This document shows positions 3,968-59,474 of a stretch of DNA of 64,000 bases, piece by piece. Position numbers and translations under genes: made by a program. Origin of the DNA: Octopus vulgaris. Its lineage: Eukaryota. Each line of letters begins with the position of its first letter. Positions within the stretch are counted from its first letter, which is position 1. The notes below the pieces were generated by a model. It was not told the origin of the DNA. It ran no database searches and was given only the letters and a program-made list of their open reading frames with translations. The DNA is taken from positions 26,908,001-26,972,000 of the forward strand of contig OX597822.1 of NCBI GenBank assembly GCA_951406725.2. The letters are read 5' to 3'.

Positions 3968-4220
3968 TACATATTAGAGGAGGAAACCACTATGTGGACA
4001 CCCTTATGCTAGAAATAGATCCGCTATGGTCCTACCACTATAGTAGGACCATAGCAGATCTATTTCTAGCATAAGGGTGTCGACACAGTGGTTTCCCTTT
4101 AATATGTATATAATACAATTTTACTGAACCTTCAGTTTTTTTATATGCTAGACCACTGGTGTGAAATCGATGTTAATTAAATTAATATCTAATTTCTCAC
4201 CTCATTTTAAATTTAAATTT
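3968..4220 (+). mobile_element. Palindromic insertion (about 65-bp arms) with 3' tail in a (TA)n tract; Penelope-like pLTR remnant
   Basis: GGAAACCACTATGTGGACACCCTTATGCTAGAAATAGATCCGCTATGGTCCTAC is mirrored by GTAGGACCATAGCAGATCTATTTCTAGCATAAGGGTGTCGACACAGTGGTTTCC. An unpaired tail runs to about 4220, with (TA)n on both sides. Confidence 0.6.
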
Positions 4221-5990
4221 ATATATATACATATATATATATATATATATATATATATATATAATTCATAAAACAAAACCTGCTAAATTCTAAAGTACTC
4301 TGGTGGTGAGATGACTAAAGTGTTGGTGTATTATATGAGATAATACATTGTAGCATTTACTTTCATCATCCTACATTCACAACTGAAATTTCACTTAGGT
4401 AGCACTTTGCCTTCCTTCTCTGATTTTCTAAGTACCTGTAACACACACACAAATACGCAAATACTTACACACACATATTGGAGCTGATTCAATCCAATAT
4501 TCCTACCACTCCCCAGAACAAAGTAAATTCAGCCTTATGTCTTAGTCTCTAGGAAACTAATGTTATTAATAAATATTTCAATGCAGCATGGCATATCCTG
4601 CCATTCCATACCATTTTGTTTTCTGTATCAGAATATTTTATCATATCATCAGCTTTTTTGTTAACCATATCTATCCTTTAATGTCATGTTACAAGATTAC
4701 TGTTTTATAAAAATTGTCAAACTGGAACTTCTACTCTAAGCAATGAGCATTGTATGTAGGTGCCAGGGTGTCCTTTTTTATTTCTTTTTTGTTTTTGTTT
4801 TTCTTCTTTATGGATTTGAAACAAGGAAATTTTTGTTATATTTTGAATCCAAATCAAATTATCTCTGTAATTCAGTGAAATACTTTAATATAATATTTTT
4901 AATAATAATAATGATAATAAAAATAAAAAATGCGATATCCTTTCTATGGGATGGTAATTCTTGAGGTAAGTTACCTTGTGTTCTTTATATTGACATATTG
5001 TGGTCAAAATGTAATCAAAGAGTAAACTTTAAAAAAAAAAGAAAGAATTATGAACTAAAATCATTTTTGAACTCTCTTGTTGACTTTCATACAAATGTTA
5101 CTGTGAAAGTCCTCATATCCACTAGTTTAGTGCCTACTGTTGAAGTAAACATTTGTGTTTGACTGAATTAACTTTGTTGTTGTTTCTCTCTCTCAAATCA
5201 TTTATTACAAGAATGTTGTTATGTGAGTTTGTTACCTTAAACATAATCTATCCAATAACTGGATAATGTTTAATACTGATATACAACACCATTTTTCTAC
5301 TTTGGTGTGTGTGGGGACAGATTTTGTTTCATGTTGTGTATGAGGAAAGAAACATTAATTGAATTATCTACATCAAGTTGTTCATGCTATCTCTTCTTAC
5401 GCAGCTCACAAGGAATTGGAAACCTTTATTGATGAAAAAAGAATTTGTTGTCAAACATAAAATTAGGGATAATAATAATTCAAAGTTAATCTTTTTGTTC
5501 CAATATTTCTGTTGAAATGCACTGTCTTAATTTCAATTTCGAAAATAATGAGAAATTCAGTAAAGTAACTTTGTCAAATTCCACCGAGGTTGACTTTACC
5601 TTTCATCCATTTGGGGTCTATAAATTAAGAACCAGTAAAGTACTGGGGTCAATGTAATCAACTATCCTCCTCCCACAAATTCCAGGCCTTTTGGCTATAG
5701 TAGAAAGGATTATCATTAATCTAGTGTTTTGAACCTAAATTTACACGAAATTTACTTTTGATCAGTTTAACTCGTTTGTAACAATATTTTTTTCTGAAAA
5801 TGAAGAATTTAATAAAATAACCTTCTTGTATCTGGAACATAAGTTAACTTGAAATTTTGATGGAATATTTTAATTTAAATCACTATAACCCCTTTGCTAC
5901 TACATTTCTGTGGAAATACATTGCCTTGTTTCAATTAATTTTGGGAAGAATGAATACTTTAGTAAAATAACTTTGTTGTTATGAAGCTTG

Positions 5991-6560
5991 TATTGAGTTG
6001 CCCAGAAAGTTCATGCCAATTTATAGTAGCTTACCTTTCGACTTATTTTAGAACATGTTTGAGTCCATAAAATAGGATTTGACTACACCTCCATTTAGAG
6101 CACAGTTTAAGCTATCTTTTCATGGAAGAAGGTTTATGTTCCTATAACCTGTGTTAATTCTGTAACCCTTTAAAATGGAAGATAAGAAAGTTCATTTTCA
6201 GCACTTGATGTTTTGGGAACCAGACAAAAATTGCTGCAGCTCGGTTGGGATGTGTTACCCCACCCTCCATATTCACCAGATATTGCTCCTTCGGATCTCC
6301 ACTTATTCAGGTCTCTGCAGAATAGTCTTAATGATAAAAATTTCAATTCCTTGGAAGACATAACAAGGTACCTTGATGAATTCTTTACCATGAAACCACC
6401 TCAATTCTGGGAAGAGGGTATTTTCAAGTTAAAGGAAAGCTGGAGATGCATTATGCAACAAAATGGTTCATATTTGGTTGATTAAAAATGTAATGGCAAG
6501 TATTTATTGACCTTTTTCTTTCCTTTAAAAATCAGCATGAACTTTCCGGACAACCCAGTA
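5991..6560 (+). mobile_element. Internally deleted mariner (Tc1/mariner) element with both TIRs and TA target duplication
   Basis: Left end TA-TTGAGTTGCCCAGAAAGTTCATGCCAATTT matches the reverse complement of the right end TA-CTGGGTTGTCCGGAAAGTTCATGCTGATTT. The interior encodes transposase pieces. Confidence 0.92.
6175..6485 (+). pseudogene. Mariner transposase remnant (N-terminal start joined to C-terminus)
   Basis: MEDKKVHFQHLM is joined out of frame to ..LGWDVLPHPPYSPDIAPSDLHLFRSLQN..GIFKLKESWRCIMQQNGSY. YSPD(L/I)APSD is the mariner hallmark; the first two catalytic Asp regions are missing. Confidence 0.9.
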
Positions 6561-8454
6561 TTTAGAACATAAATTTTCACGAAATTTTGCTGGAAGGTTT
6601 TTATTTAGATCACCTTCTAACATGAAGTTTGTATCTTTAGAATCAGGAGCATTCTCAGTTGGTTTGGTAACAAAAGGGTTAAAATCTTGCAGTTTTTCCC
6701 CAATTTCTGATATGCAGTTGAAAAGAGAACTACTTGAATTATTCATGGACATTATTTGAGGCTCAATTGTGATCCCTATTTTTTCAAAACTGTGGGACAT
6801 TTCCCACTTACCAAAAATGTACAGAATTGTTGTTAAGTAGTTTATTGAGGTGTGTTGTATTTTAATTGTTGAGTTTGATTGGTATTTGAGTTTTGAATTG
6901 GTTTCTAAATTTGTCCATTTTACACATCTATAAAGTACATTTTTATTGATATACAAATATTAATTTTTTTAAACCCTGCATTTTAACCTTTCAGTTGGTC
7001 TACATGGCACTGGATTGAATATTGATATGTAATGGGGGATATTGTGTGGAATATTCTTTGAAAAGATCTCTCTATAAAAAAAGGTTGATTAGAGACTCCA
7101 TGACTCAATGGTTAGCTCTTTCATTACAAGATTCTGAATGAAATACACTGCCATCATTTCAGTTAATGCTTGAAAATAATGAAGAATTCAGCAAAATAAC
7201 TTAGTCATTTTAATCTGATATTTGGAACATAAATTTTGAAGGAAGATTTTAATTCTGAACACTTTAACACTTTTGTTACAATATTTCTGTTAAAATACAC
7301 CACCTTCATTTCAGTTAATGTTTAAAAATTATGAAGAATTTAGGAAAAATAACTTAGGTTTTATTAAGCTAGAATTTACAACATACTTTATTATGAAATT
7401 TTCATGGAAGGTGTTTAGGTCAATCTGAAACAGGACGTTTGTATTGTAGAACCAGGGCTAGTCTCAGGTGGTTTGGTATTAAAATGGTTAAAGAAAGTAG
7501 ACTTCTATTGATTGGTTTATAAATGTGTGAGAGGTAGAGGAGCAAGAGAGAAAGAGAGAGAGAGAGAGAGTATGAGTGCAGTTATATGCTGTCACATTTG
7601 TAACTACTTATCCCTAATGAAAATAAACCATTCTGGGCCGGTGACCTTTGCAACACTCACTGTCTGTATTAAGTAAGAATGAGCGGTCATATATATATGT
7701 ATATATATATATATATATATATATATGTGTGTGTGTGTGTGTATGTATGTAGTACTTCAGAGTAGATATTAGTTCTTCTTTTGTTCAGTTCAATGCTCTT
7801 ACTTGTCTATAAACATCATTGAATAAAAACTCAAACCTGTGGGATGCTGAGAGCTAAAGTGTGGTTTGCATTCCAAGGTGGAAGTAGCTGTTGCGACTTT
7901 ATATGTATTGCTTATACTGTTTAGAAAGACATAAATGTCATTCAGTCTTATTTCTCGTCTCTCTTAAGACAGTGGTTTAAATATTTGTCTCTAAATGTAA
8001 AAAGGAAAATTAAGCCTTTGATTCAATGTTCACTAATGTAAGACTTGCAGTCATTCATTCTTTTACTTGCTTCAGTTATTGAACTGCAGCCAAGCTGGAG
8101 TACCATCTTGAAGGGTTTAGTCGATTTGCTTGACTAAAGGTGGTGTTCCAGCATGGCCACTGTCAAATGATTGAAGCGAGTAAGAGAGTATATCATTTTA
8201 ACAAACAAATATGCTTCTGAGTAAAATAGATAAGTTGACCAGTAATACTGGGAAAGCGGGGGTTATACCCAGTTCCCATTTACCATTAATCTGTTCCATG
8301 TTCTATCCCCTTTCCTGTCTTCATGCCCAGCCCATCGTTTATTACAAACTATTAATTCGATTAGGGGGTGAATAAAGAATGTCCCTATTTTATTTTACCA
8401 AATGAATATGCATCTGAGTGAAATAAATTAGATAAATAGATTTACAAATACATT

Positions 8455-8866
8455 GACAAATAGCCTGCATGTCGCCTTACTGGCACCTGTGCCTGTGCTA
8501 GTAGGGTGCCAAGAGCACCATCCGAGTGTGATCGTTGCCAGAGCAGCCAACTGGCTTCCATACCCGTGGCATGTAAAAGGGCACCATTCGAGCATGATCA
8601 TTACCAATGTCACTTCACTGGCACATGTAAAACGATTTGAGCAAGGTCATTGCCAGTACCGCCTGACTGGCCCCTGTGCCAGTGGCACGTAAAAAGCACC
8701 CACTACACTCTCGGAGTGGTTGGCATTAGGAAGGGCATCCAGCTGTAGAAACTCTGCCAGATCAAGATTGGAGCCTGGTGCAGCCATCTAGTTTGCCAGC
8801 CCTCAGTCAAAATTGTCCAACCCATGCTAGCATGGAAAGCAGATGTTAAACGATGATGTTGATGAT
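8455..8866 (+). mobile_element. RTE-LINE-derived 3' end / short element with internal TGGCA(C/T)GTAAAA repeats
   Basis: Ends CATGCTAGCATGGAAAGCAGATGTTAAACGATGATG, the same terminus as the RTE fragment at 19681-20400. Related copies lie at 9840-10200 (-), 10910-11210 (-), 21100-21290 (+) and 60555-60735 (+). Confidence 0.7.
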
Positions 8867-58955: not shown

Positions 58956-59163
58956 AATGACTATTGTTGTTGCTGCAATTATTTCCTGTTGCCATATACA
59001 TATACATACATATATCTATCTATCTATCTATCTATCTATCTATCTATCTATCTATCTATCTATCTATCTATCTATCTATCTATCTATCTATCTATCTATC
59101 TATATATATATATTTATACATATATATCTGTAATATAATATGTGTCAATTATTTGATTGTCAT

Positions 59164-59224
59164 AATAACACTCCGAGTTTCGGATGTCGGGACGGAAATC
59201 TGCTCCAGCATCTCATCAGTTATT
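59164..59224 (-). ncRNA. Type I hammerhead motif (intact CUGAUGA, H17=G)
   Basis: AATAA-CTGATGA-GATGCTGGAGCAGATTTCCGTCCCGACATCC-GAAA-CTCGGAG-TG-TTATT. Confidence 0.75.
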
Positions 59225-59291
59225 GAGACAAACGAAAATGCTATGAAAATGATCGTTTAATGGCCATTTTCATAGCATTTTTGTTTGTCTT

Positions 59292-59352
59292 AATAATTGA
59301 TGAGATGCTGGAGCAGATTTCTGCCCCAACACCCGAAACTCGGAGTTTTATT
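59292..59352 (+). ncRNA. Type I hammerhead motif (C3>U, H17=U)
   Basis: AATAA-TTGATGA-GATGCTGGAGCAGATTTCTGCCCCAACACCC-GAAA-CTCGGAG-TT-TTATT. Confidence 0.7.
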
Positions 59353-59474
59353 ATGGCAACTGAATAAGTGTTACATATATTACAGATAAATTCCTCTATT
59401 TACATAACATTCTTTTGTTGTCATACTATTACTATTAATATATATATATATATATATATATATATATATATATA

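Follow-up and report, generated by a model that had tools for sequence, protein, structure and literature searches.

The dispersed insertions in the window (the whole 64-kb stretch of octopus DNA analysed) are very probably 5'-truncated, head-to-head end-products of several unrelated, endonuclease-bearing families of Penelope-like elements (PLEs), and three of them, named 29219, 59125 and 32767 after their positions, resemble the Hydra clade. A Penelope-like origin, already proposed in a preliminary description of the window, is upheld by a covariance model that ranks these arms first, by the occurrence of the motif downstream of RT/GIY-YIG ORFs in other animals, by two TA-followed 3' ends, high copy number and variable palindrome centres in the 29219 family, and by the anatomy of the insertions themselves. 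Three of these probable stumps have the hammerhead of the TA-seeking Hydra group, which makes this an already described kind of repeat. Publications exist on the architecture, on the targeting of (TA)n and on the pairing of hammerheads on opposite strands; since such pairs left by truncated elements and octopus families that target (TA)n are both on record, the novelty first claimed was overrated.

Inverted repeats had been reported at nine sites, eight of which are palindromes with a 5'-truncated inverted copy joined head to head. The exception is the 212-nt insert at 40896..41107, between two (TA)n tracts, whose inverted-repeat score (24, against 29 by shuffling) is not beyond chance. A masked scan, with microsatellites hidden and TA ignored, returns eight palindromes scoring >100 and misses 51337. 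The density is eight palindromes in 64 kb, seven of them between 29 and 59.5 kb. Arms are near-identical in 29219, 32767 and 42181 and only about 71-87% alike in five palindromes; the hammerheads point outward from the palindrome centre. As first described, the elements are mutually unrelated (BLASTN best E 0.06), and self-BLAST/BLASTN turned up no second copy of any of them within the window.

All nine insertions touch a (TA)n tract, as claimed. Both ends lie at most 4 nt from a (TA)5+ tract in six of the nine, and at least one end lies at most 5 nt away in all nine, against 1.3% and 15%, respectively, of random 250-nt intervals at 10 nt, a comparison that is partly circular because boundaries were partly set by eye at tracts. 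Flank enrichment is borne out by the masked scan, where six of the eight palindromes scoring >100 end at most 25 nt from a tract against a background of 8.3%. The insertions share this (TA)n preference with the Hydra clade. One-sided tails, given as about 25-110 nt long in most insertions, are present in seven of nine and measure 26-105 nt (3968, 105; 29219, 65; 32767, 26; 42181, 55; 51337, 84; 56830, 55; 59125, 47), with no clear tail at 52896 or 40896. In PLEs such tails stem from two alternative 3' ends, and two such ends occur in the 29219 family.

The 29219 element (29219..29414) is a young palindrome with a 65-nt right tail in a (TA)n tract, its Hydra-type 3' ends set head to head. The palindrome (29214-29349) has 68-nt arms and no loop, with its centre at 29281/29282. 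A 5'-truncated type I hammerhead, read from the sequence at 29281..29311 on the plus strand and mirrored on the left arm, retains A6-A9, stem II with a GNRA loop, GAA, a palindromic stem III and the 3' strand of stem I, with a GUA site at 29305-29307. The tail (29350..29414, plus strand) lies between the family's two 3' ends and starts with a CTC...GAG-ACT hairpin common to ORF-linked elements from outside the window. Also young, the 32767 element (32767..33195) lies between (TA)n tracts and consists of a 26-nt left tail (32767-32792) and a palindrome (32793-33202) with arms of about 200 nt, one indel and a 5-nt loop. Its whole minimal type I hammerhead (33034..33078, plus strand; identical mirror copy at 32918-32962, minus strand) has a U4C core, a U.U-closed stem II, a palindromic stem III and a 5-bp stem I, with stems I and II present in the MFE fold (z -0.9). 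The 59125 element (59128..59438) adjoins (TA)n and (TCTA)n and joins a palindrome (59122-59391, 84%) to a 47-nt right tail; its Hydra-type hammerhead (59160..59225, minus strand) has an intact core with G at the cleavage position, and the mirror hammerhead (about 59291-59355, plus strand) has U at that position and a C3U change.

Whole or partial type I hammerheads had been assigned to six insertions. Five elements carry them (whole in 32767 and 59125, 5'-truncated in 29219, degenerate halves in 51337 and 52896), four have no supported motif, and only three are backed by an independent model. That model, R1, is a covariance model built from 12 outside metagenome loci only, with no window sequence. 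Of its 20 window matches, the six best (36.3-17.7 bits; next 12.8) fall on 29219, 59125 and 32767, two arms each, with scores of 36.3 bits (E 3e-5) for 29219, 22.8 and 20.2 bits for 59125, and 17.7 bits (E 0.18 each) for 32767. Given its rough calibration, R1 is strong on its own only at 29219, with E 0.017-0.18 for 59125 and 32767; five elements have no R1 match. A canonical minimal hammerhead near the 3' end, as in the Hydra clade, is likewise found in 29219, 59125 and 32767, is seen by eye only in 51337 and 52896, and is absent from 3968, 40896, 42181 and 56830.

The stem III helix is not independent evidence, because the pattern used to find the outside loci was drawn up with an eye to the stem III of 29219 and 59125. 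A descriptor search had been suggested as a check, and its outcome within the window is mixed: R1 singles out three elements, whereas a strict descriptor does no better than shuffles, giving four matches (the two 32767 arms and two others) against 0-6 in 15 shuffled sequences. Rfam hammerhead families are absent among the 150 of 488 window matches listed, where only sub-threshold miRNA models appear, and from all four single-arm scans. Alignment A1 is 92% paired with two pairs showing double changes, counts that weigh little because its rows were picked by motif. Among rejected candidates, the minus-strand CTGATGA at 51494 points inward and leaves stem I unpaired, and the look-alikes in 3968, 42181, 56830 and 40896 need too many core changes. 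A hammerhead is defined by self-cleavage, for minimal forms as a dimer; the motifs here are probably carried along with the 3' end as passengers, and most copies are expected to be unable to cut. Small additions to what is known are a tail hairpin that is conserved and, in two families, a U4C core, although U4C may already be described by Lunse et al. 2017, on PLE hammerhead variants.

Coding sequence is linked to this 3'-end type outside the window. Within the 64 kb, tblastn finds no RT/GIY-YIG remnant (best E 3.8), and no ORF was found linked to any family of this genome, with the sequence upstream of 29219 traced only about 20 nt. Among 119 outside loci, 14 match a 722-aa ORF. The same 3'-end type lies downstream of an RT + GIY-YIG ORF in 10 of the 119, with the hammerhead on the ORF strand at 84-190 nt in nine and at 618 nt in one; in the remaining ORF loci the hammerhead lies about 2.3 kb upstream (two) or is not on the ORF strand (two). 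By eye, the 722-aa ORF shows motifs of published Hydra proteins. This reference ORF has no Pfam family or PDB match, and one among the 120 homologues listed has PF01541 (GIY-YIG). The Hydra clade is further marked by RT phylogeny and a C-terminal EN without the CCHH motif. Head-to-head hammerhead pairs recur in 15 of the 119 loci, with the tail hairpin on one arm in ten, on both in none and on neither in five.

The 29219 family, the one family of the nine examined in this way, was checked in contigs of four runs (X1-X4) from four studies and is multi-copy and dispersed: each of the four runs has 2511-4846 contigs on the 196-nt element. Longer copies complete the hammerhead. Loose ends before 29281 (X2, X3, X4) provide the absent stem I strand and core start, and those behind 29282 (X1, X2, X4) provide the same part, mirrored. 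Two 3' ends about 65 nt apart, at 29349 (X1, X3, X4) and 29411-29414 (X1), are both followed by (TA)n. Joints reveal copies with shorter palindromes, and because centres vary between copies, the hairpin does not spread as one fixed unit. A 19-nt motif of 29219 has no match in viral contigs.

An unlikely alternative is that at least this family is a non-autonomous mini-element, a 150-200-nt Hydra-type 3' end whose transcripts a PLE protein re-mobilises in trans, and more than debris left by truncation of a full-length master. Summed contig depth drops about tenfold from 29345 to 29282, the loose-end consensus turns mixed or fades about 20 nt upstream of the hammerhead, no ORF link was found for the family, and non-autonomous PLE derivatives are described in the literature. 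However, heavy 5' truncation yields the same depth profile, a coral-type outside family with palindromes just as short is linked to an ORF (L036, L019), and the centres differ among copies.

Hammerhead-less elements are also present. The 3968 element (3969..4217), with no accepted hammerhead, is an older palindrome (3964-4112, 87% in self-BLAST; arms about 3969-4112) whose 105-nt right tail (fold z -4.2) ends in a GGTG...CACC hairpin. The 42181 element (42181..42383) has 74-nt perfect arms (42181-42328), a 55-nt right tail forming the same hairpin type (z -4.1), a weak hammerhead look-alike and no R1 match. The 56830 element (56830..57087), between (TA)n tracts, has a palindrome (56825-57032, 79%) with a 47-nt unpaired centre, a 55-nt right tail and no hammerhead. 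We infer that these three also belong to Penelope-like families. Two old palindromes retain hammerhead halves, both by eye only. The 51337 element (51337..51531) has an 84-nt left tail with two hairpins (z -5.1) and a weak palindrome (51421-51528; score 49, shuffle maximum 28) whose arms start at the truncated core and retain a GAAAC-GGTC half. The 52896 element (52835-53142; 71%) is larger than its earlier start at 52896 implied, with a right arm broken by a TA run and a left arm where a canonical hammerhead survives as its 3' half, GAAAC-CGGTC.

MITEs typically have a palindromic structure and TA targets, and 3968, 42181, 56830 and 40896, with neither an accepted hammerhead nor an R1 match, could improbably be TA-targeting miniature DNA transposons or fold-back remnants. 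One-sided tails of 55-105 nt, however, shift the inverted repeat away from the centre, which is not the arrangement of terminal inverted repeats; Naiad PLEs also target (TA)n and have no canonical hammerhead; and one type of tail hairpin is common to 3968 and 42181. Inverted repeats at both termini around a fixed interior are not what is seen here, where seven of nine insertions are tailed and the 29219 centres vary.

Non-LTR retrozymes, tandem hammerhead elements with circular RNA, are a very improbable source. They have type I minimal hammerheads and no ORF and are reported to derive from PLE ends, but they are defined by head-to-tail tandem units, whereas the motifs here are single per strand and head to head. 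No such tandem is seen within the 64-kb window, nor any second copy of an element, and the retrozyme-like option of the preliminary description is not supported. Assembly fold-backs, which the near-identical arms of 29219, 32767 and 42181 and the lack of a contig spanning all of 29219-29414 among those listed might suggest, are scarcely credible given unlike flanks, one-sided tails, five palindromes whose arms agree at only about 71-87%, the crossing of a 29219-family palindrome centre on one strand by contigs from X2, X3 and X4, and the same anatomy in 15 outside loci.

As truncated PLE ends, the insertions compare closely with published families. The part of Craig et al. (2021; PMC8557442) compared here covers (TA)n-targeting Hydra and Naiad families, octopus ones included. 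The three best hammerheads match the type tabulated there for the Hydra clade. In that clade, as here, the target is (TA)n and the 3' end is preceded, at about 100 nt, by a type I hammerhead that has a U.U or G-C pair added around stem II and a palindromic stem III of 3-4 bp; the stem III of 29219 and 59125 is that of the Hydra-2_aMil/Penelope-16_HM/Penelope-3_HM type, and by eye the tail hairpin is the same as in Hydra-2_Amil. Differences are that two of the families here have a U4C core, that tails exceed 30-40 nt and that no ORF was seen. The 3' ends look unlike the published Hydra-1_Obim and Naiad octopus consensus sequences, and nine 12-13-nt motifs, one per element, have no match in the parts of the consensus files compared, where line breaks may hide matches. 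Octopus Naiad PLEs, which target (TA)n and have no canonical hammerhead, are a possible source of the hammerhead-less inserts, with no sequence match found.

Dispersed single or opposite-strand hammerhead pairs 100-700 bp apart have been ascribed to truncated PLEs (Cervera & de la Pena, 2014; PMC4209133). Many families per genome and a palindromic stem III are common to both data sets, whereas the portion of that survey compared here does not list U4C among its variants and deals neither with this host nor with a (TA)n setting. The insertion unit of EN+ PLEs, an inverted pLTR with a tail (Arkhipova et al., 2013; PMC3846280; Frangieh et al., 2024; PMC11167929), shares head-to-head inversion, a palindromic junction and AT-rich targets, as far as the sections compared go. 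Its optional one-sided tail, the gap between two RT start sites (PMC11167929), recurs here, although tails of 47-105 nt are longer than the 30-40 nt usually given. That unit belongs to the Penelope/Poseidon clade, with a hammerhead overlapping the ORF start, whereas the arms here have no ORF longer than about 20 codons.

In the proposed mechanism, the element's GIY-YIG endonuclease would nick a (TA)n tract, and RT would start on the RNA at either of two internal positions close to its 3' end. Synthesis would soon halt, either at the hammerhead or just upstream of it, and another copy, inverted, would be joined at a few self-complementary bases. One arm would be tailed because the second copy ends at the other start site.

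The value of the finding lies mostly in annotation: such stumps, which are readily mistaken for MITEs, miRNA-like hairpins or repeats of no known class, point to several Penelope-like families, of which one is very abundant. A stronger combined reading, in which two unrelated Hydra-type families independently fixed a weakened U4C hammerhead, and 29219 is a very abundant non-autonomous mini-element whose hairpin is rebuilt at each insertion, with a tail stem-loop whose conservation reaches from corals to this host as the RT start signal, seems decidedly doubtful; if true, a PLE protein could write into (TA)n targets with the help of a short cis-element of natural origin. A candidate RT start signal for the little-studied Hydra clade comes from the tail hairpin, which is conserved, together with the two 3' ends that run into (TA)n, and the U4C core is relevant to the question whether hammerheads of PLEs need to cut at all.

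Of nine inserts in the window, each named by its start coordinate, the eight confirmed as palindromes are very probably the stumps of several families of Penelope-like elements (PLEs), with confidence higher than this overall judgement for 29219 and lower for the inserts without a hammerhead. The host sequence is AT-rich eukaryotic DNA with many microsatellites. All nine inserts were put forward as inverted repeats in the preliminary description, and eight score above shuffled controls: 3968 (3964-4112), 29219 (29214-29349), 32767 (32793-33202), 42181 (42181-42328), 52896 (52835-53142), 56830 (56825-57032), 59125 (59122-59391) and, weakly, 51337 (51421-51528). 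The ninth, 40896 (40896-41107), is not confirmed, its palindrome score of 24 falling below the highest shuffled score, 29. Seven of the nine sites carry a one-sided tail of 26-105 nt. Both ends lie no more than 4 nt from a (TA)5+ tract at six of nine sites (random intervals, 1.3%), and at least one end lies within 5 nt at all nine (random intervals, 15%), element boundaries having been partly placed at the tracts themselves. A TA-blind masked palindrome scan of the window, which missed 51337, returned 13 segments scoring at least 44; of the eight with scores over 100, six finish no more than 25 nt from a TA tract (background, 8.3%). Comparison of the listed elements with one another gave no significant match. 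Two additional palindromes absent from the preliminary description, both diverged, at 26694-26816 (72%) and 63270-63417 (76%), have neither an adjoining TA tract nor a hammerhead.

The window also holds an abundant SINE-like repeat of 240-250 nt with (AAT)n ends, single or in head-to-tail runs (23395-25900, 36090-37570, 55100-55650 and about ten further places); two of these copies, 23841-24080 and 24091-24340, seem to stem from a recent duplication. Relic ORFs (28354-28915 and 57584-57874, minus strand; 6186-6485 and 59814-60146, plus strand) include C2H2 zinc fingers (Pfam) and, presumably, LINE-type and mariner-type fragments. Because minus-strand open stretches at 56560-56680 and about 53990-54120 resemble exons of a putative host gene, 56830 and 59125 may be intronic.

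Hammerhead motifs, whole or partial, were previously attributed to six sites and are recognised at five. Read outward from the centre, both arms of 32767 hold a complete minimal type I hammerhead with C for U at position 4 (U4C), 59125 has one per arm, each with one damaging change, and the 29219 motif begins within the core, at A6. Only degenerate 3' halves, identified by eye, occur at 51337 and 52896, and no hammerhead was accepted at 3968, 40896, 42181 or 56830. Pattern searching, suggested earlier as a check, gave no excess: our descriptor matched the window 4 times against 0-6 in shuffles, and Rfam hammerhead models scanned against four arms gave 0 matches. U4C occurs in nature and is less active in vitro (Perreault, 2011); no report of it in PLE hammerheads was found in the literature surveyed, which did not include the main PLE-variant paper. 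At 42181, a single case, the short arm stops about at the would-be cut position of a hammerhead look-alike. Similar GGTG...CACC hairpins occupy the tails of 3968 (4160-4200; z -4.2) and 42181 (42330-42375; z -4.1), and a GGTGA...TCACC pair lies within an arm of 56830 (56968-57020); such hairpins may serve a second PLE group as its 3' signal.

The motifs of 29219, 59125 and 32767 share the layout of Hydra-clade PLE hammerheads (Craig et al., 2021, File S2; PMC8557442), and this motif type was therefore retrieved from metagenome contigs, yielding at least 119 loci. Among 134 motif matches, 95 have a stem I of at least 4 bp, and 32 of these also have a downstream CTC...GAG-ACT hairpin. A covariance model, R1, was aligned from 12 diverse loci picked for both features, window sequence left out. 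Its 20 window hits are headed by both arms of 29219 (36.3 and 21.4 bits), 59125 (22.8 and 20.2) and 32767 (17.7 each), the next reaching 12.8 bits. Stem III of 29219 and 59125 had been built into the search pattern, so the 29219 tail match and both hits in 32767 carry more independent weight.

The proposed Penelope-like origin is supported by these hits and by outside loci linked to an ORF. In locus L080, a 722-aa ORF ends 187 nt upstream of the hammerhead motif; it has no match in Pfam or among solved structures, shows by eye the motifs of published Hydra proteins, and has PF01541 on one homologue among the 120 listed. Near-complete Hydra-type ORFs occur in the contigs of L080, L021 and L068. 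The L080 ORF matches 14 of the 119 listed loci, many being too short for any ORF; relative to the ORF, the hammerhead is downstream and on its strand in 10, upstream in 2, arranged as in a partial tandem, and off that strand in 2. Locus L036, which is linked to an ORF, aligns colinearly with 29219 through the latter's right arm and tail. No L080-type ORF occurs in the window, and a short motif taken from each of the nine elements had no exact match in published Naiad (another PLE clade) and Hydra consensus files, so the window elements represent unnamed families with coding partners unseen. A retrozyme-like origin, also entertained earlier, is not supported: retrozymes are defined by tandem units (retrozyme preprint), which are absent from the window.

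The insert phenomenon is real but already known. Minimal hammerheads are on record as scattered through single genomes by the thousand, including opposite-strand pairs 100-700 bp apart that have been attributed to truncated PLEs (Cervera and de la Pena, 2014; PMC4209133). Copies that are inverted and truncated at the 5' end have been described, as have tails, targeting of (TA)n, and Hydra and Naiad families in octopus (Craig, 2021; PMC8557442), and a 2026 Octopus vulgaris annotation reports 31 recently active Penelope-like families, its main text not mentioning hammerheads.

In a related clade, AT-rich DNA is nicked on each strand by the PLE protein, two internal sites on the RNA, their distance apart giving the tail, serve as starting points for reverse transcription, and hammerhead cleavage is not required (Frangieh, 2024; PMC11167929). 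Head-to-head inversions with palindromic junctions have been described and self-priming proposed (Arkhipova, 2013; PMC3846280). By analogy, a nick within (TA)n would be followed by a short cDNA from one start site, and reverse transcriptase would come to a halt close to the hammerhead, at the ATGA of whose core both 29219 and 51337 begin. Turn-around at a few self-complementary bases would then allow completion to the other start site, the second arm arising either by copying back on the first or from a separate priming. Head-to-head pairs make up 15 of the 119 listed loci; 10 of these pairs have the tail hairpin in a single arm, 5 lack it altogether and none has it in both arms. Seven coral-type copies (L002, L013, L015, L026, L041, L118, L119) carry, at the centre of the palindrome, brief templated duplications of the kind expected if synthesis slipped repeatedly while turning around.

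Contigs from four public runs (X1-X4, four studies; X1 may be the window's own sample) were mapped to 29219, giving 4846, 2511, 2974 and 3668 records. Summed depth reaches 2.2 million (single listed contigs, 5-140), which shows great abundance and is not a copy number. The following observations come from a listing that covers a minority of the pieces and all but 377 of the loose ends. Longer copies had been predicted beforehand to supply the stem I strand and the beginning of the core that 29219 lacks, and loose ends at the centre do so, terminating in CTGT followed by CCG in most cases and by CTG otherwise. Loose ends beyond 29349 (X1, X3, X4) and 29411 (X1) continue into (TA)n, indicating two 3' ends about 65 nt apart. 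Assembly fold-back had been raised as an alternative, and no listed piece spans the exact locus; joints that skip near-symmetric stretches reveal copies whose palindromes are shorter, and a palindrome centre is traversed on a single strand by pieces 9, 18 and 25, so the fold-back in this family is biological. Common variants at 29289 leave a GNRA loop in place, and those at 29294 close stem II. At 29312/29251 both arms carry the less common letter, a weak hint of one template for both.

Of 8000 sequences scored against the L080 ORF, at least 2725 are homologues with E no higher than 1e-20, almost none of them named, and the Hydra clade thus appears far larger than the few dozen families described.
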